IMG/VR virus record: IMGVR_UViG_3300049988_000245
Span: 32,001-96,000 of that record
From: a virus
Lineage: Duplodnaviria; Caudoviricetes
Length of the DNA: 64,000 nt
Direction: 5' to 3' (one strand)
This document shows positions 26,089-59,530 of this stretch, in pieces (within the stretch, counting starts at the first letter, position 1; each line of letters begins with the position of its first letter). The translations under genes and the position numbers were made by a program. The notes under the pieces were generated by a model. The model had not been told where the DNA came from and did no database searches. It saw only the letters and a list, made by a program, of their open reading frames with translations.

Positions 26089-26319
26089 TCATCCATGCAT
26101 GATCGCGATAACCGCCTGGGTCTCATCGCGGTACCACACCCGAATACGGTACTTGTCGAACGGCTCGATCACCTGCTTTGCGCGGGTAGCCCATTCGATC
26201 TTGTAGATATGCGTGAACCTCTGGAGGTAGTCGAGGGCGTCGAACAGATTTAGACCGACCAGATCGAGGTCGTCCAGGGCACATTGAAGCCCATAGTTCT
26301 TCTGCATTTCCGCGTTCAT
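26089..26319 (-). CDS. hypothetical protein
   Basis: Coupled to the GNAT gene stop. Confidence 0.45.
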   Translation of the reverse strand: MNAEMQKNYGLQCALDDLDLVGLNLFDALDYLQRFTHIYKIEWATRAKQVIEPFDKYRIRVWYRDETQAVIAIMHG

Positions 26320-26873
26320 GCGGCCACCACGTGGGCATTGTACCCGACATAGCGGAAAAACAGCTTGGTTCCGTAGGAGAGCCACCCCAGATTCTCTTCC
26401 GAGAGCGCCTTGTACGTGAGCGGGTAATCGACCGGCTTCAGATCGACCGTCGCAATGGCCGTCTCATGATCACGCTCGATCACGAACCCGAGGGCGAGCA
26501 GGCGGCGCATCATCCAGCGATTCTGGGTCAGGCATTGAGAAGAGAATCGTTTGGCACGAAAGCGGGACCATTCAACCGCTCTGGCCAGGAGGTTCGCGCC
26601 GTTTCCGGCTTTCCGGAAGGGCTCTTCCACGGACAGGCCGAGGTCGGCGGTTCCGTGGGCAAACGCGACGTGCGCGGCGGCGCGAAGCGTACAGTTTTCG
26701 TCGAAGAATCCGAAAATCGCGTCTTGGGTCAGATCGATCCCAGAGACATACCGGTTGATAGCCTCGTCCGTAGTGGACGATTCGAATCGCATCATGCGAT
26801 CGTTATAATCGAGGCGCTTCAGATGCTCCTCAAATTTCCACCGCTCCATAGGAAGCAGCATACGAATGGTCAT
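26316..26873 (-). CDS. GNAT N-acetyltransferase (host-like)
   Basis: LGLSVEEPFRKAGNGANLL (motif A); NRWM. Confidence 0.75.
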   Translation of the reverse strand: MTIRMLLPMERWKFEEHLKRLDYNDRMMRFESSTTDEAINRYVSGIDLTQDAIFGFFDENCTLRAAAHVAFAHGTADLGLSVEEPFRKAGNGANLLARAVEWSRFRAKRFSSQCLTQNRWMMRRLLALGFVIERDHETAIATVDLKPVDYPLTYKALSEENLGWLSYGTKLFFRYVGYNAHVVAA

Positions 26874-26973
26874 TGGAAATGCCTCGAAAAATAGCTGAGT
26901 ACCGCTGGGGAAAGCGGAGTATTTATTCAACTACATTTCAAGGCGCAGCCGCAATATTTTCGCGACGTGAATT

Positions 26974-27342
26974 CTAGTTGGCTGGATCGTTGTAGTAATT
27001 CGATACGTACTGGAAGTCGTCCGCCGACATCCGAATCTTCCCGTCCTTCGCGCCGATCGCCAAGGCGAGCAGGACTTTCATCTCTCGGATGTGGTGACCG
27101 TGCCAGTAATAAGTCGCGTTCACACCTGCGAGTTCTCTGAGATTCTTGTCGGCCTTTTGGGTCGCTTGATCCGCCGTGAGGGTCACATCGAGCCCGAAGA
27201 ACTTGCGTGGCTTACTGTACTCAGCGATCCTCTCCTGACGCAACCGGACGCGCTCGGCCTCCCGCCACTCGATGGCGTCTTTCAGAGCCGCAACAACGCG
27301 CGGGGCGCTGACTTCGGCCGAGGTGAATGCCTTGTCGGTCAT
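26974..27342 (-). CDS. hypothetical protein
   Basis: GGAG RBS before MTDKAF; TAG stop. Confidence 0.5.
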   Translation of the reverse strand: MTDKAFTSAEVSAPRVVAALKDAIEWREAERVRLRQERIAEYSKPRKFFGLDVTLTADQATQKADKNLRELAGVNATYYWHGHHIREMKVLLALAIGAKDGKIRMSADDFQYVSNYYNDPAN

Positions 27343-27575
27343 CTGTGCTCTCCATAGTCGTTGAATTCGATCCGGCGGGTCTTCCAGGGCTTCCACATGA
27401 GGAGATCGGCGCAGCAGAAGCCGACGCCCCCGGCGAGGTAGGAGTACCAGTTGATCCCGCCAGCCGCCCAGGGAAGCCACGAGATGGCAAAACCGATTGG
27501 CGCGGTCACCGAGGTTCCGATGAGGAATAGCGCGGTCTGCCGGTAAATCTCGTACTTGAGCGGCGTGTTCAACAT
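27339..27575 (-). CDS. small membrane protein
   Basis: Two hydrophobic segments; directly downstream of the tRNAs. Confidence 0.5.
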   Translation of the reverse strand: MLNTPLKYEIYRQTALFLIGTSVTAPIGFAISWLPWAAGGINWYSYLAGGVGFCCADLLMWKPWKTRRIEFNDYGEHR

Positions 27576-27597: not shown

Positions 27598-27672
27598 TGG
27601 CGTCCCCTCAGGGATTCGAACCCTGGATCGCGGAGTTAGAAGCCGCTGCCTTAACCGCTTGGCTAAGGGGAC
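27598..27672 (-). tRNA. tRNA with CUA anticodon (amber suppressor-like), Gln-type D-arm, encoded CCA
   Basis: GUCCCCU/AGGGGAC acceptor, G73, D-arm GCC-AAGCGGUUAA-GGC, anticodon arm GCGGC-UUCUAAC-UCCGC, T-arm CAGGG-UUCGAAU-CCCUG. Confidence 0.85.
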
Positions 27673-27678
27673 ATACGG

Positions 27679-27752
27679 TGTCTCTGGTCGGGCTCGAACC
27701 GACGACCAATGGAGTTAGAAGCCACCGCTCTGACCAACTGAGCTACAGAGAC
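27679..27752 (-). tRNA. second tRNA with CUA anticodon (amber suppressor-like)
   Basis: GUCUCUG/CAGAGAC acceptor, A73, D-stem GCUC/GAGC, anticodon arm GUGGC-UUCUAAC-UCCAU, T-arm GUCGG-UUCGAGC-CCGAC; CCA not fully encoded. Confidence 0.85.
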
Positions 27753-27881
27753 ATCCCGTACTTATGTGCTAAACGATCCGGTGATTTTCGTCAAACCAAT
27801 CTGATCTGGATGGTTAACGACCCACCTGAATCTCAAACGATTGCCGCTTAAATATTAGAGACATCCAACTGAGGTATTACC

Positions 27882-28011: not shown

Positions 28012-28042
28012 AGCCCGACCAAAGCAATGCTCTGGCCGGGCT
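28012..28042. terminator. hairpin between the convergent peptide gene and pqqA
   Basis: AGCCCGACCAAAGC/GCTCTGGCCGGGCT imperfect stem. Confidence 0.45.
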
Positions 28043-28348: not shown

Positions 28349-28468
28349 TAACGGGCGTCCGCATCGACCCTGCTGCACATGGTGTTGCAGGCGCCCGGAC
28401 CGCTCCCAGAGTCGTTTTGGGAGCGGTCACTAGGGGGTCAGCCAACCTAAGGCTGGACGCCTCCGTTA
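28349..28468 (+). ncRNA. candidate multibranch structured RNA
   Basis: Closing stem TAACGG-GCGTCC/GGACGC-CCGTTA; 11 bp inner hairpin; G-U pairs favour +. Confidence 0.35.
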
Positions 28469-29041
28469 CGCGGCGAGAGCCACATCCTTGACCTCCTTCG
28501 GTGTGATCCGAGCCGAACCGTCTGCGTTCAGTGTCAGCGTACAGTGGCGGAAACGGATCGCACCCTTGGTGGAGGGGTGATCGGGGGTCTCTCGGGTGGT
28601 CCCGGTGGTGGCCGAGAAGTCCACGTGATGGACGTAGTAGGATTTGCCCTTCGTCTTGAGCACCCAGGCGGGGAGCGAGGGGAACTCAATCGAGCCCTTG
28701 TTGAAGTGGAAGTCCACCATGGGGCAGTTTTCCACCGTCAGGGGGAAGCTTGCCATCTGATCGGCCATCTGCTGGTCCATCGCCAGGATACGCGCCCAGC
28801 GCTGCTTGGCCGAGTCGAGAAGCGTCATCGTCTTGAACGCCATGATGGATTGGAAATGAAGCTCGCGCTGGAGCTTGCGCGTGGCATCCGCACCGGGGTT
28901 GGTCCGGGCCATCCGCTTGAGCTTCGCCCGATCGGCGCGAATCTTCTTTGTCTGGTGCGCGTAGAGGGCGCGCCACGTCTGGCGCCAGGACTTGTACTGC
29001 TCGGGGGTGGTGAAGGTCGGGTGCATTGCGTGAGCGGACAT
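28466..29041 (-). CDS. hypothetical phage protein
   Basis: AAGGA RBS before MSAHAM; C-terminal YYVHHVD...TRETPDHPSTKG. Confidence 0.55.
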   Translation of the reverse strand: MSAHAMHPTFTTPEQYKSWRQTWRALYAHQTKKIRADRAKLKRMARTNPGADATRKLQRELHFQSIMAFKTMTLLDSAKQRWARILAMDQQMADQMASFPLTVENCPMVDFHFNKGSIEFPSLPAWVLKTKGKSYYVHHVDFSATTGTTRETPDHPSTKGAIRFRHCTLTLNADGSARITPKEVKDVALAA

Positions 29042-29051
29042 GGTCGATTCC

Positions 29052-29333
29052 TTACTGTGTGATCGTGGGGTTCTTGATTCCGGCCCACCGAATACGAAAA
29101 TGGAAGGCCGTGTTCTCATCGCTGAAGTAATACAACTCGTATCCATCAGCGTGGTACCAGTATCCGGGCTGATCGGTACACCATTCCCGGAGTTCTTTAC
29201 TGTAGTTGAAGTTCCTTTTTCCCAAATAGACTTTGTGGACTTTTCCCCACTTCTTTCGAATGTGGTTAAGGAGAAAATCTTTGTGCCGCATCTCTGGTGG
29301 TCGGTTCTCGTAATTCGTCATGATCACTTCCAC
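29052..29333 (-). CDS. small-domain paralog family member
   Basis: LREWCTDQPG...YYFSDENTAFHFRIRW. Confidence 0.7.
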   Translation of the reverse strand: MEVIMTNYENRPPEMRHKDFLLNHIRKKWGKVHKVYLGKRNFNYSKELREWCTDQPGYWYHADGYELYYFSDENTAFHFRIRWAGIKNPTITQ

Positions 29334-29956
29334 CTCAGTGTGTACATGATCGCGTCATGCTGGTACTCGAACGCGATACCTACGGTGGTGGAACAGCCCG
29401 AGGCCCATCCCACACGCTTGTGCTGGCCCATGCAGGTGTCGGCCAACCAAACTTCGATTTCCTGAAGCTTCTTCACGTCGAAGCGGATGACCTTCATCAG
29501 GTACCAACTTGGGTCGATCTGGAGCGTCGCCTTCAGGGAGGCCATCTGCGCCTGATCCTCCCATTTCTCAGTGCCGACGAAGTTCGAATCCGTGTAGCCG
29601 TATTCGCCCGGCTCCCACTGATCCGCCTCGGGTAGCGCACAGATGCGCGTCAGGCCCTCGTGGAGCTTGGCGAGCAGTTCCGGGTCATTGGCGTTGCCTT
29701 CTTCCTCGAACGCCACGCCAGGGCTGTCGAAGGTCACCTGAAGGTAGGCGTCCTTCGTGAGGGAGAAGAACAGGGAGGAATTGTACTGACGGTCGATCGA
29801 ACACCCGATCTCGGTGTCCTCCGCGTCGAGTTCGGCGTCGTCTGGTAGGGCTGGAAGGCGGGCGAGCAGAGTCGCCCAATCTCTTTCGAGATCAGTCATG
29901 GAGGTCTCCGGAATGTGATGGGGTTGAAACGCAGAAACGCCCGCCGCCGGAATCAA
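29324..29956 (-). CDS. paralog family domain fused to an acidic N-terminal domain
   Basis: IEVWLADTCMG...IAFEYQHDAIMYTLRWK. Confidence 0.6.
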   Translation of the reverse strand: MIPAAGVSAFQPHHIPETSMTDLERDWATLLARLPALPDDAELDAEDTEIGCSIDRQYNSSLFFSLTKDAYLQVTFDSPGVAFEEEGNANDPELLAKLHEGLTRICALPEADQWEPGEYGYTDSNFVGTEKWEDQAQMASLKATLQIDPSWYLMKVIRFDVKKLQEIEVWLADTCMGQHKRVGWASGCSTTVGIAFEYQHDAIMYTLRWK

Positions 29957-30102
29957 CCGGTGACGAGCGTCAGATAGGCAAACTGTGGGCGAGCAGGCGA
30001 AACGGCCGGTGATCCGGGCCAGGAACGCGATGATCGCGGAAAGGCGGTTCTACAAGGTCATGAGGGGAATCTAGCGCAGCCGTGTCGGACTGGCAATATG
30101 AT

Positions 30103-48066: not shown

Positions 48067-48471
48067 CTCGCCGTGGATCGCCCGGAAAGCCTCGCGATCG
48101 ACCGGGAAGATGTTCTCGGTCTCTGAGGTGTCGAACATCTGCTCGTACCGCTCCGGACCGAGAAGCGTCTTGGTCTGTCTCATGAAGCCGGAGAAGTTCG
48201 TTTCGGCCGCGTCGAGGAAACCTTCCGAGGTGAGTTCGCCCCGATCCATTGCCTGACCCAGGCGCTCATGCTCGCCGCGCATCTTGCGTTGGATGGTCAG
48301 GACGTGTTCGAACTCCTCGGGCGTCACCGACACCTTGGTCTGCTCGAACATCGAGTGAAGCTCTTCGCGATCCGTTTGAACGTGACTGTGCATATGCTGC
48401 CCCTGATGAAAGAGGCAGCATATCTGGTTCGTCGGCTTAGATCGATACCTGTCTGCCCAATTCGACGGCAC
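48052..48471 (-). CDS. hypothetical protein
   Basis: ORF downstream of kup; the true start is probably internal. Confidence 0.4.
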   Translation of the reverse strand: MPSNWADRYRSKPTNQICCLFHQGQHMHSHVQTDREELHSMFEQTKVSVTPEEFEHVLTIQRKMRGEHERLGQAMDRGELTSEGFLDAAETNFSGFMRQTKTLLGPERYEQMFDTSETENIFPVDREAFRAIHGESAPT

Positions 48472-50314
48472 GCTCCGTGGGTATCCGGAAGTGCGCCGAG
48501 GCGTCGGCCTGAGCGGTGGACATCCGGACGAAGAGTGCGTCCTGCCACCAGGGCATCTTAGACGCGCTGGAAACCTTCAGGGTGCGCTTGGACAAGAAGA
48601 AGCTCGTCTTCATCACCTCGAACTTCCAGCCCGCCCTACGACACTGCTTGAGCGCCAGGGGAACGTTCGGGACTTCCATGAACCCGAACCGTAGGCGGAC
48701 CCGCAGGAAGCCGTCGTTCAGGGTCTCGATCCGAACGCGGTCTACTTCTTCCACGCGAGGTTCGTCCACCGTGTCTACGGCGAGAATCACGGTGTTCTGG
48801 TGGAGCACCCGGTTGTGCTTCAGGTTATGCAGGAGCGCCGGGGGCACCTCGTCCGGACGAGGCGTAAAGAACACTGCCGTCCCATCGACGCGATTCTTGA
48901 TTGATTTGGCCAGCGTCGGGATATAGTCGAGCAGGTCAAGAGCTTCCTTGCTCTGCTTGGTCGAGAGTAGTTCCGAACCCTTCCGCCACGTGATCATCGC
49001 GACCATCAGGAGAGCGCCGAACAGCACCGGGAGCCAGCCGCCGTCGAACACCTTCAGTGAGTTGGCCGACAGGAACACCATGTCGAGGGCCAGGAACGGC
49101 GTCATCAGCATGACAGCGAGCGGCATCGGGACCCGCCAGACCTTCCAGGCGACGAAGAACGCCAGCAGCGCGGTCATCACCATGGTCCCGGACACCGCGA
49201 TCCCGTATGCGGAGATCAGCGCCTCGGAGGACCGGAACGACAGCACCACCATGACGACTCCGGTGAGCAGCATCCAGTTGATCTGAGGAACGTAGATTTG
49301 CCCCCGCTCGGTCTCCGAGGTCGGTCGAATCACCATTCGGGGGAGCAGCTTCAACTGGATCGCCTGCTGGGTGAGCGAGAACGCCCCGGTGATCGCGGCC
49401 TGCGCGGCGATGATCGTCGCCAGCGTGGCGAGCAGCACCATCGGGATCAGCGCCCATTCCGGAAACATCAGGAAGAACGGATTCTCCGCATGCTCCGGGT
49501 GAGCCATCAGGAATGCGCCCTGGCCCAAATAATTCAGACCCAGACAGGGGAAGATGAAGCCGATCCACGCGACTTGAATCGGAGTCCGGCCGAAGTGACC
49601 CATGTCCGCGTATAGCGCCTCCGCTCCGGTAACTGCGAGGAACACCGAACCGAGCACCAGCATAGAGGCGAGGCCGTGGTGGAGTAGGAAGTCGAGCGCG
49701 TGGAGCGGGTTCAGGGCCGCCAGGATAGCCGTGTTCTCCCAGATGTAGGGAAGACCAACCAGGGCCATCAGACCGAACCACAGGGCCATCACGGGGCCAA
49801 AGAACGTGGCAACTCGCGCCGTACCCCGGCTCTGCACCACGAACAGGCTGATCAGGATGACCAGGGCGAGCGAAACCACGTAGGGTTTGAACGCGGAGGA
49901 GACCAGATTCAGCCCCTCGACCGCTGACAGAACCGAGACCGCCGGAGTCAGCACGGCGTCTCCATAGAACAGGGCGGCGCCGATCATCCCAAGTATCACG
50001 ACGTACTTGGCTCCGCCCATGGCCTTAAACGCCAGTGCGGTGAGTGCAAGAATCCCGCCCTCACGGTCATTGTCCGCCCACATAATGAGGCCGACATATT
50101 TCACCGTGACGGTCAGGAACAACGTCCAGAGGACCAGGGAGACCAGGGAGACGATCAGGTCGGGGGAATGTGCTCCGGCGCCGGAGGCGACCTTCAGGGT
50201 CTCCTTGAGCGCATACAAGGGGGAGGTGCCGATATCCCCATAGACGACACCGGTCGAGCCGAGAGCCAGTGTGAACAGGCCCGCCTTATGCGGGACCGTG
50301 GTGGTGGATGACAT
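48437..50314 (-). CDS. kup: KUP/HAK/KT potassium transporter
   Basis: GVVYGDIGTSPLYA, GEGG-like REGGILAL, GAEALYADMGHF, LLHNLKHN; multiple TM helices. Confidence 0.95.
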   Translation of the reverse strand: MSSTTTVPHKAGLFTLALGSTGVVYGDIGTSPLYALKETLKVASGAGAHSPDLIVSLVSLVLWTLFLTVTVKYVGLIMWADNDREGGILALTALAFKAMGGAKYVVILGMIGAALFYGDAVLTPAVSVLSAVEGLNLVSSAFKPYVVSLALVILISLFVVQSRGTARVATFFGPVMALWFGLMALVGLPYIWENTAILAALNPLHALDFLLHHGLASMLVLGSVFLAVTGAEALYADMGHFGRTPIQVAWIGFIFPCLGLNYLGQGAFLMAHPEHAENPFFLMFPEWALIPMVLLATLATIIAAQAAITGAFSLTQQAIQLKLLPRMVIRPTSETERGQIYVPQINWMLLTGVVMVVLSFRSSEALISAYGIAVSGTMVMTALLAFFVAWKVWRVPMPLAVMLMTPFLALDMVFLSANSLKVFDGGWLPVLFGALLMVAMITWRKGSELLSTKQSKEALDLLDYIPTLAKSIKNRVDGTAVFFTPRPDEVPPALLHNLKHNRVLHQNTVILAVDTVDEPRVEEVDRVRIETLNDGFLRVRLRFGFMEVPNVPLALKQCRRAGWKFEVMKTSFFLSKRTLKVSSASKMPWWQDALFVRMSTAQADASAHFRIPTERAVELGRQVSI

Positions 50315-50378
50315 GTGGGTGATCCATTGGAGGAGGCGACGTTCTACACCTCTCTCATTGGTTCGACCAAATTGAATT

Positions 50379-50987
50379 TCAGGCAGATTCCTCCTCGGGC
50401 GGGGCAATTTTGTACCACCGCATTTTGAACTCCATCGCCTCGTTCGGGTCCTTAATCACCGCGACAACGTTCCGAAGCTGGTTCGACCATCCACCGGTCA
50501 CGACATGCGGACCTCGAATTCGTTCATTCACCCAGACTTCCATCTCCGTGTGTTGGTCCGAGGTCATAGTAGTCTCGATTCTGTAATTCTTGACCAGCGA
50601 CCTGAACCAATCTCGAACCTCTACAAGAGATCGTGGATCAGAGAATGCCAAACGCCATCCGTTAACATTGGACGACATGTCACCTTCGCGTTGCAGTAGA
50701 ACATTTCCATTCACACCATCGACGAATTTTCTGAATTCGGTGTAGTCCCAAAGTTTATTATTGATGTCCAAATCAGTTACTCGAAACTCTTCCCCGAAGG
50801 AGGCTCCGAAATACCACATCCGATAGTCATTGAACGGGTCTGGTAAGCCATGCGAGGGAATCTTCGCCACTCCCTGGAGCGTATTAGCAATTGGCTGAAA
50901 CTCCATGACTCGGGAGTTCATATTGGTGATCTGCGAGTATACCTCTGGGGTGAAGGACACGCGCGGAACCATTATAACGGTACTCAT
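50379..50987 (-). CDS. paralog family member with two tandem domains
   Basis: WRLAFSDPRSLVEVRDW followed by MEVWVNE...VIKDPNEAMEFKMRWY. Confidence 0.6.
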   Translation of the reverse strand: MSTVIMVPRVSFTPEVYSQITNMNSRVMEFQPIANTLQGVAKIPSHGLPDPFNDYRMWYFGASFGEEFRVTDLDINNKLWDYTEFRKFVDGVNGNVLLQREGDMSSNVNGWRLAFSDPRSLVEVRDWFRSLVKNYRIETTMTSDQHTEMEVWVNERIRGPHVVTGGWSNQLRNVVAVIKDPNEAMEFKMRWYKIAPPEEESA

Positions 50988-58831: not shown

Positions 58832-59162
58832 TAAAATCGTCGGACGATTCCTCGCGTCCGACAACATGCCGGAGCTTGTCCCAAATCTCCTCGGTGAGGA
58901 CCATCGTCGTGCCATCGACGCGGTCGTAGAGTTCCGGGGCGATCTCGCAGAAAATCTCGACGAGAGGATTCCCGCGCATCCGGTCGATGGGGAGAAATCG
59001 ATTCTTCACCGCCCGGAACAGCATCTCGCCGGGATCGCGCTTGATTATCACGTGCGCGCGGAACGATATCGTCGTGCGAATCCGGTCTGCGCCGACGATT
59101 TGTCGGCCCTGACGATTCGGGATCAGCGCGATGATCTGAGGGGGCATGAATCCATGGTCCAA
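58773..59162 (-). CDS. hypothetical protein
   Basis: ORF downstream of the tmRNA. Confidence 0.45.
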   Translation of the reverse strand: MDHGFMPPQIIALIPNRQGRQIVGADRIRTTISFRAHVIIKRDPGEMLFRAVKNRFLPIDRMRGNPLVEIFCEIAPELYDRVDGTTMVLTEEIWDKLRHVVGREESSDDFIRSQQSARAGAPLKLTYPY

Positions 59163-59169
59163 ACATGGG

Positions 59170-59497
59170 TCCGGGGGCCGAAGCCCCCGGTTCTGTTTCT
59201 ACGGTTACCCTACCGCACGAAGATCACGCCGCGAGGCGGACTTCCATGGCAACGTTGTCGTTGACAGATATGTGTTTGAACAGTGCACGCAAACAGTTTC
59301 CTGCGTACGCAAGCCGTGTCTCAGCTTATGTCGCCTCGTGCTCCCCGAAGGAAGTCGATCTCTCTTGCCCCTTCACGCGCAATCGATCCCAAGTCGCCCC
59401 CATCAGGAGAACACTTCATGAAAGTGTGCTCATGGTGGAGGCGTGCGGATTCGAACCGCAGTGTTGCCGCGCTATCTCACAAGGTCTTCAACAGTGG
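59170..59497 (-). ncRNA. ssrA: two-piece (circularly permuted) tmRNA
   Basis: Acceptor piece ends UGCGG-UUCGAAU-CCGCA-CGCCUCC-A-CCA (59433); hairpin IVS 59402-59432; coding piece starts GGGGGCG (59401) with G3-U70; tag VNDNVAMEVRLAA* at 59265-59224. Confidence 0.92.
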
Positions 59498-59499
59498 GG

Positions 59500-59530
59500 T
59501 ATTTATAGCTGAGCGTCGGTGGAGTGTCAA
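59500..59530 (-). promoter_or_regulatory. tmRNA promoter (overlapping sigma70 and T4-late)
   Basis: TTGACA-N17-TATAAATA. Confidence 0.7.

Follow-up and report, generated by a model that had tools for sequence, protein, structure and literature searches.

The 64,000-nucleotide stretch analysed here (the window) is bases 32001-96000 of one linear IMG/VR virus record of 265,895 bp, IMGVR_UViG_3300049988_000245 (the contig, or G000). It carries in tandem on its minus strand two different tRNA genes, tRNA-A (upstream, 27677..27752) and tRNA-B (downstream, 27598..27672), that share one mismatched anticodon arm with the anticodon CUA. With moderate confidence, we read the pair as genuine amber suppressors that would permit limited read-through, with an arm that has been selected or gene-converted and with no client recognised in the contig. 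UAG would then be read through at a low level or in a timed manner during infection, without recoding of the phage. The contig itself is part of a jumbo phage genome of 470-500 kb that falls in the Atu_ph07/Phosso group. Its DnaB helicase shares 53% identity with the helicases of Agrobacterium phage Atu_ph07 (490 kb) and Sinorhizobium phage Phosso (469 kb); identity to the helicase of G001, a complete 499,572-bp IMG/VR genome, is 57%. CheckV puts the completeness of the contig at ~57%, which leaves ~43% of the genome unseen, and the host is probably an alphaproteobacterium.

ARAGORN places the cta anticodon at the canonical position in both genes, which score 64.0 bits (tRNA-A) and 57.7 bits (tRNA-B) with the Rfam tRNA model RF00005, for which the gathering score is 29 bits. 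They are separated by a spacer of 4 nt (GUAU). The tertiary positions are standard in both according to the sequence and the Infernal alignment (U8, A14, G18-G19, G15:C48, the T-loop TTCGA and G53:C61), and the sole non-standard pair that the Rfam model flags in each is 31:39. This pair lies in an identical 13-nt core of the anticodon arm, GGC-UUCUAAC-UCC (27711..27723 in tRNA-A and 27632..27644 in tRNA-B, both on the minus strand; direct-repeat family D1), in which G29:C41 and G30:C40 are paired and C31/U39 is mismatched around a 7-nt loop, U32-U33-C34-U35-A36-A37-C38, with U33 and a purine at position 37. The full arm is GUGGC-UUCUAAC-UCCAU in tRNA-A, with outer pairs G27:U43 and U28:A42, and GCGGC-UUCUAAC-UCCGC in tRNA-B, with outer pairs G27:C43 and C28:G42; these outer pairs differ in a compensatory way, which supports the CUA register and the 7-nt loop.

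The two bodies are only 67% identical. tRNA-A has A73 and a 3' end ACC-G in which CCA is not encoded, and could be completed by a CCA-adding enzyme, whose gene is present in all four of the contig, G001, Phosso and Atu_ph07. tRNA-B has an acceptor stem GUCCCCU/AGGGGAC, G73, an encoded CCA, a 4-nt variable loop and a 3-bp D stem (GCCA..GGC, pairing GCC/GGC) of the Gln type, as in the tRNA-Gln of Phosso. Position 20 is U, not A, in both. The sequence-only reading that preceded this analysis had described two tRNA bodies in tandem with a common CUA arm GGC-UUCUAAC-UCC and a C31:U39 mismatch, one with a Gln-type D-arm and G73, the other with A73 and neither with A20; ARAGORN, Rfam and the sequence itself agree with it on each of these points. 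ARAGORN labels the genes tRNA-Pyl, as it does for any CUA anticodon. We rejected this label on architecture, as tRNA-Pyl has a short D loop, a 6-bp anticodon stem and a 3-nt variable loop, and in the pair the D loop is normal and contains G18-G19, the anticodon stem spans 5 positions and the variable loop is 4 or 5 nt long.

An exact search of metagenome contigs for the 13-nt arm together with the T arm returned eight contigs in which the match lies in a tRNA, and all eight tRNAs are CUA tRNAs, with varied acceptor stems and discriminators and in DNA of 33-56% G+C. Exact matches to the arm in contigs of two bacterial metagenome-assembled genomes (L069, L070) are not tRNAs and were discarded. 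Across ten tRNAs with this arm, positions 27:43 and 28:42 covary, in keeping with a 4-bp stem and a C31/U39 mismatch around a normal CUA loop. In two of the metagenome contigs the same-arm tRNA is directly followed by a gene for a PTH2-type peptidyl-tRNA hydrolase that is gated by an amber codon, that is, interrupted by TAG soon after its start: M-A-P-T-TAG in L061, taken from a 475-kb contig (Pfam PTH2 32.3 bits), and M-T-TAG in L067 (23.8 bits). The genes neighbouring the tRNA in the same-arm metagenome contigs have no homology to this phage.

A wider sample was drawn from IMG/VR as CUA tRNAs with G29G30/C40C41 and any base at 31, 32, 38 and 39 (loci L122-L201 and L241-L320), and the counts that follow hold among the matches listed. 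A 31:39 mismatch is found in 39 of 160 phage CUA tRNAs (24%) vs 21 of 574 other tRNAs in the same DNA (3.7%; odds ratio 8.5, Fisher p 4e-14), and the mismatches are mostly C/A, A/C, C/C and C/U. The combination C31-U32/C38-U39 does not occur in any of 133 sampled phage CUA arms with G29G30/C40C41, and its presence in both tandem genes is therefore not a matter of independent chance. An identical unusual arm on bodies of 67% identity is kept by selection, gene conversion or both, and the shared features of the arm (C31/U39, U32 and C38) probably tune decoding efficiency. Two CUA tRNAs occur together in 19 of the sampled loci. Among 135 confirmed CUA-tRNA loci, 32 have an amber-gated PTH2-like open reading frame (ORF) within the fetched flanks, in every case on the strand of the tRNA, at a median distance of ~830 nt and mostly with TAG as the third codon.

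The same arrangement is found in the sister phages. In Phosso, the match of the annotated 'peptidyl tRNA hydrolase' (176,653-176,985) to the PTH2 model already sets in 30 nt before the annotated start, and the frame begins with AGGAGA-n7-ATG AAG TAT TAG (ATG to TAG at 176,491-176,502; L077:5492-5503). The Atu_ph07 orthologue, on the minus strand, begins with ATG ATT GGC GAA CAC TTT TGA (ATG at 199,001, TGA at 198,983-198,981; L078). The annotated PTH2 starts of both phages are thus too far downstream. The stop of the gate matches the anticodon of the suppressor that each phage carries: TAG with CUA in Phosso, which has two CUA tRNAs (at 171,983 and 446,731), and TGA with UCA in Atu_ph07, which has one UCA tRNA (at 430,713). 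A genome-wide screen for a start, at most 10 codons, a stop and then a coding frame returned PTH2 as the sole TAG match in Phosso and the sole TGA match in Atu_ph07. Serratia phage BF has a PTH2-like gene starting M-T-H-TAG ~3.5 kb from its Sup-CUA tRNA. The gate stop is the third to seventh codon of PTH2 genes in the sister phages and in many unrelated large phages, and PTH2 is the one recognisable predicted client of suppressor tRNAs in both. A literature search found no paper on stop-gated PTH2.

The phage uses the standard genetic code, and is not recoded, over the 265,895-bp contig. Stop-to-stop coding coverage was compared with TAG, TGA or TAA taken as sense; greedy coverage reaches 92% under code 11, and the gain with TAG as sense does not exceed that with TAA as sense. 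With a codon-usage model, TAG is the stop of 33-41 of 315-346 called genes (~11%). In-frame extensions past TAG are no longer than those past TAA or TGA, and the only three that are long prove to be ordinary adjacent genes, since in each a start codon follows the TAG by 3-8 codons. Searches by tblastn with TAG=X frames against Atu_ph07, G001 and Phosso gave no conserved gene with an internal TAG, the matches being only antisense or off-frame shadows and gene junctions. The inference of the sequence-only reading that the genome is not globally recoded, made from intact long ORFs in the window, thus holds across the whole contig, with no gain in coding density from TAG as sense. That reading had also proposed to look for a phage release factor 2 (RF2) or aminoacyl-tRNA synthetase: no class-I release factor (PF00472; RF1 or RF2) and no Glu/Gln-tRNA synthetase (PF00749) was found in the contig, which is 57% complete, or in G001, Atu_ph07 or Phosso. 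The complete relatives with CUA tRNAs are likewise standard-code phages.

The gated PTH2 of the sister phages, which lay outside the view of the sequence-only reading, reshapes the question about the pair. In Phosso and Atu_ph07 the gene lies in a five-gene cassette (in Phosso gp265, gp266, PTH2, gp268, gp269). The window contains homologues of the two outer genes, both on the minus strand: gene X (29324..29899; Phosso gp265 and Atu_ph07 AUZ95037, tblastn E 4e-15 and 1e-13) and gene Y (28466..29041; Phosso gp269 and Atu_ph07 AUZ95033), which is 47.5% identical to the Phosso protein (tblastn E 4e-50; E 2e-38 to Atu_ph07) and belongs to no Pfam family. The order in the contig is gene X, a weak gp268-like frame and gene Y, with gp266 and PTH2 absent between X and Y by tblastn. 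Genes X and Y are adjacent, and 713 nt separate gene Y from the tRNA pair at the end of the cassette. As gp265 and gp268 are members of a small-protein family that is large in this phage, the synteny is carried by best matches and by gene Y alone. We take the gated PTH2 and its neighbour to have been deleted at this locus, as the comparison with the sister cassettes suggests. The client in this phage accordingly either lies in the 43% that is unseen or has been lost.

Candidate gates near the cassette did not supply a replacement. ATG-ACC-TTG-TAG (30050-30061, minus strand), 54 codons upstream of gene X and in frame with it, was judged to be chance or part of a 5' untranslated region, because gene X has a likely start, with GGAGA before its ATG, at 29899 and the sequence in between shows no sign of coding. 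In G001, ATG-ACG-TAG (G001:109612-109620, minus strand) is placed similarly, ~55 codons before the point where its gene X homologue probably starts, and is a doubtful gate. In both genomes the frame stays open up to the gene, and an early-TAG start upstream of it thus recurs in two genomes. ATG-TAG before an ORF at 26316-26930 was likewise set aside, as it lies upstream of the likely real start of that ORF.

Several points weigh against the pair being working suppressors with a client of their own. A screen of the 266 kb for a start, 1-10 codons, TAG and a long frame gave no client, and a hidden Markov model (HMM) built from gated PTH2 members finds in the contig only an ungated paralogue with a plain start (G000:9053-9500), which is the only PTH2 gene in the 266 kb. 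The same HMM shows that the complete relative G001 also lacks a gated PTH2, and so in this subclade the tRNAs may serve another purpose or be relics. TAG ends ~11% of the phage genes without extra back-up stops, and an efficient suppressor would therefore be costly. The IMG/VR sample was selected by pattern, is not phylogenetically independent and was taken among the matches listed. Expression, charging and suppression by the pair are putative, and the amino-acid assignments given next draw only on textbook identity rules and the nearest bodies.

Since the bodies differ, two residues are probably inserted: the pair would place different amino acids at UAG, probably Glu (less likely Gln) from tRNA-B and possibly Lys from tRNA-A. 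Outside the arm, tRNA-B is closest (76%) to the tRNA-Glu(UUC) of the contig itself. tRNA-Glu is recognised by acceptor-stem features and a missing position 47, and GatCAB uses U1:A72 on tRNA-Gln; tRNA-B has the Glu elements in its acceptor stem and lacks position 47 and U1:A72, so that charging with Glu is our best guess. For tRNA-A, the nearest match outside the arm is the Serratia phage BF Sup-CUA tRNA (85%), followed by a cyanophage tRNA-Arg(UCU) (78%) and, after these, by Thr, Asn and Lys tRNAs; the tRNA-A body looks Lys/Arg-like. LysRS prefers U35 and A73, and ArgRS uses A20 and C35; tRNA-A has the former two and lacks the latter two, which makes charging with Lys a weak guess.

The alternative that best survives, although we consider it unlikely, is that the tRNAs are relics that once served the gated PTH2 of the adjacent cassette and have persisted without function since that gene was deleted in the subclade. 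PTH2 and its neighbour are indeed missing between genes X and Y and present in both Phosso and Atu_ph07, tRNA fragments upstream of the pair show local rearrangement, and G001, which has no gated PTH2, carries two CUA tRNAs (at 102,238 and 106,351) with non-U33 loops. However, both genes in the window fold into cloverleaves without flaws and score high with Infernal, an identical 13-nt arm on bodies of 67% identity would not survive neutral decay, and 43% of the genome is unseen. The G001 genes (L048:2238-2314, plus strand, and L048:6351-6425, minus strand) have A33 and C33 in the loops CACUAAA and CCCUAAA, although the Rfam tRNA model still gives 64.8 bits to one of the two. The tRNA island of G001 also includes a gene (L051:10970-11045, minus strand) to which ARAGORN assigns the four-base anticodon tcca; the tRNA could have an 8-nt loop or be frameshift-suppressor-like.

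A permuted transfer-messenger RNA (tmRNA) gene in the window (59133..59526, minus strand; ARAGORN, and 77.3 bits with Rfam RF04321), which we take to be of the alphaproteobacterial type, bears on two further possibilities. A tmRNA is also present in G001 (G001:15556-15913), the encoded tags being VNDNVAMEVRLAA in the contig and VNDNDIRMAIAA in G001. Phosso and Atu_ph07 have none, so that the tmRNA is found just where the gated PTH2 is not; four genomes prove nothing about such an either-or pattern. Both tmRNA and PTH2 deal with stalled or drop-off translation products, and tmRNA is a possible functional companion of the pair that would rescue ribosomes reading through to the ends of mRNAs. A more elaborate proposal, which we regard as rather unlikely, is that the pair forms a matched two-amino-acid module with an arm tuned for weak, controlled read-through, that in this subclade the phage tmRNA has taken over from the gated PTH2 as the partner dealing with the consequences of read-through, and that the 31:39 mismatch is a designed feature of phage suppressors. 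In such a module, C38 may make the arm a poor substrate for isopentenylation of A37.

Read-through directed at a host or competitor is less probable again. Here the pair would act on UAG-ending mRNAs of the host or of co-infecting elements, extending or destabilising proteins or overriding defence, with the phage tmRNA clearing non-stop ribosomes. The failure to find a phage client in the 266 kb would be consistent with this, as would the tmRNA in this phage and G001 and its absence from the two relatives that keep a gated PTH2, and the authors of the Atu_ph07 study raised host stop codons as targets (PMC6102473). Yet this evidence is circumstantial and comes from four genomes, the TAG-ending genes of the phage itself would also be affected, and the tRNAs have no linked gene for defence or anti-defence.

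A shifted or expanded loop, either a 9-nt C-UUCUAAC-U or CUUCUAA with UCU at its centre, would turn the pair into decoders of Arg(AGA) codons or +1 frameshift suppressors, and we consider this very improbable. The C31/U39 mismatch could open the loop, and the full-length BLAST neighbours include phage tRNA-Arg(UCU) genes, among them the cyanophage gene that is 78% identical to tRNA-A outside the arm and a Providencia phage gene with the same acceptor stem as tRNA-B. The UCU register, however, forms only 3 of 5 stem pairs in each tRNA and loses position 26, whereas the outer pairs covary in the CUA register across the ten same-arm tRNAs; the main Arg identity elements A20 and C35 are absent, with U at both positions 20 and 35; and exact-arm tRNAs adjoin amber-gated genes in L061 and L067. 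Of what the sequence-only reading had concluded about function, the reading of amber on two bodies stands and limited or conditional read-through is still the best account, and its suggestion that the two may insert different amino acids is plausible. Its alternatives fared less well: stem covariation in the ten tRNAs fits a normal CUA loop and speaks against frameshift suppressors with a 9-nt expanded loop, and nothing in the genomic context points to decoys for an anticodon nuclease. Finally, genome-wide or late-gene recoding of TAG as in crAss-like and Lak phages (code 15) would explain the presence of CUA tRNAs, and the 43% that is missing may include some of the structural and lysis genes, but it is effectively refuted for the 266 kb seen by a coding density that gains nothing from TAG as sense, TAG as a normal minority stop, conserved proteins without internal TAG vs Atu_ph07, Phosso and G001, the absence of an RF2 gene from the contig and the standard code of complete relatives that carry CUA tRNAs.

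For the favoured reading, that of limited amber suppressors under selection or gene conversion at the arm, the surroundings of the pair give some indication of how it is expressed and how it arose. A strong terminator-like hairpin (28012..28042, minus strand; 14 pairs followed by a T-rich tail) lies between gene Y and the tRNAs, which implies that the pair has its own promoter, from which tRNA-A and tRNA-B are probably co-transcribed. One arm of the hairpin is similar to the tRNA-A 3' end (inverted repeat I2, whose other copy is at 27682-27694), and the ~250 nt between hairpin and tRNAs hold scrambled tRNA-A fragments. One of these, ~100 nt ahead of tRNA-A (27857..27876, minus strand; direct repeats D4 and D6), derives from its 5' end and D loop. 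These fragments look like footprints of past tRNA duplication or rearrangement. Downstream, an ORF of 78 amino acids (27339..27575, minus strand) starts 22 nt after tRNA-B; it has two predicted membrane helices, belongs to no Pfam family and is not PTH2-like. The ORF at 26316-26930 had seemed GNAT-like by eye, an impression that was dropped as it has no Pfam match even at E<=1.

Elsewhere, the contig proteins are mostly without known function; those recognisable include a DnaB-type helicase, a primase, an HNH endonuclease, a fibre protein with Ig-like repeats and a Kup potassium transporter. The last is a full-length Kup/HAK transporter (window 48437-50407, minus strand; Pfam K_trans 574 bits), an unusual auxiliary gene for a phage. 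The contig encodes seven tRNAs (Cys, the two CUA, three Glu and Asp), and the large tRNA islands of the relatives presumably lie in its missing part. In Phosso (169,971-173,142), one of the CUA tRNAs is flanked by a gene for cysteinyl-tRNA synthetase on one side and by a short 'serine-tRNA synthetase'-like gene on the other; the contig has a homologue of this short gene, with 41% identity, at G000:179353-180051, far from the CUA tRNAs. IMG/VR searches with the neighbouring proteins and with the exact-arm pattern returned no close relatives of the contig.

Suppressor tRNAs in standard-code phages have been reported several times, as for XacN1 and Atu_ph07, without a known purpose, and the pair described here adds to these reports. 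Two bodies sharing a rare mismatched arm suggest that the arm itself is under selection, and the ~8-fold higher frequency of the 31:39 mismatch in phage CUA tRNAs is a testable clue to tuning. Because the tRNAs are kept in a phage without a gated PTH2 in the part seen, they offer a natural contrast for roles beyond unlocking that gene, and naturally tuned suppressor arms could interest those who engineer stop-codon suppression.

Phage suppressor tRNAs in standard-code phages are a known kind of feature, of which the window pair is another case; what is distinctive here is an identical rare mismatched arm on two different bodies together with a missing client. Borges et al. described a standard-code relative carrying a suppressor (bioRxiv 10.1101/2021.08.26.457843; PMC9523058), and Sinorhizobium phage AP-J-162 carries a 'tRNA-Pyl(CUA)' (PMC11242549). 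The Xanthomonas jumbo phage XacN1, a standard-code phage of the same broad group, also has two CUA suppressors, for which in-silico amber read-through gave no target (Yoshikawa et al. 2018, PMC5852040). It differs in arrangement: its copies lie in a block of 29 tRNAs within terminal repeats, whereas those in the window form an isolated tandem sharing a rare mismatched arm. The UCA suppressor of Atu_ph07 has already been published by Attai et al. 2018 (PMC6102473), who raised the possibility that it acts on stop codons of the host. As the nearest cultured relatives, Atu_ph07 and Phosso have the standard code, suppressor tRNAs and the gene X to gene Y cassette in common with the contig; unlike it, they have a PTH2 gated by the stop that their suppressor reads, and their suppressor arms are of the ordinary CUCUAAA or CUUCAAA type with 31:39 paired.

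In Eneladusvirus (Serratia phage BF, Yersinia phage fHe-Yen9-04 and the Erwinia pEa_SNUABM phages) the Sup-CUA body is 85% identical to tRNA-A outside the arm, but the arm is GGAAU-CUCUAAA-AUUCU, the gene is present in a single copy and the hosts are enterobacterial. In Pseudomonas phage Milchi (L056:1-666), an RNA ligase gene is directly followed by a suppressor tRNA whose D arm is Gln-like; this tRNA is 82% identical to tRNA-B over positions 8-62, or 70% with the arm excluded, and the PTH2 gene of this phage lies elsewhere in its genome and is ungated. The code 15 phages (crAss-like and Lak) resemble the phage of the contig in that a phage-encoded CUA tRNA overrides a host stop codon, and differ from it in having many in-frame TAGs in late genes and often RF2, of which there are none here. 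The classical bacterial amber suppressors include supE tRNA-Gln and Lys- and Glu-derived suppressors, and the 'extended anticodon' work of Yarus reportedly established that the anticodon arm sets suppression efficiency. The anticodons CUG (Gln), CUU (Lys) and CUC (Glu) are each one base away from CUA, at position 36, a likeness that extends to the present pair; the classical suppressors, however, are single-mutation alleles of host genes, whereas the window carries dedicated phage genes with a conserved mismatched arm.

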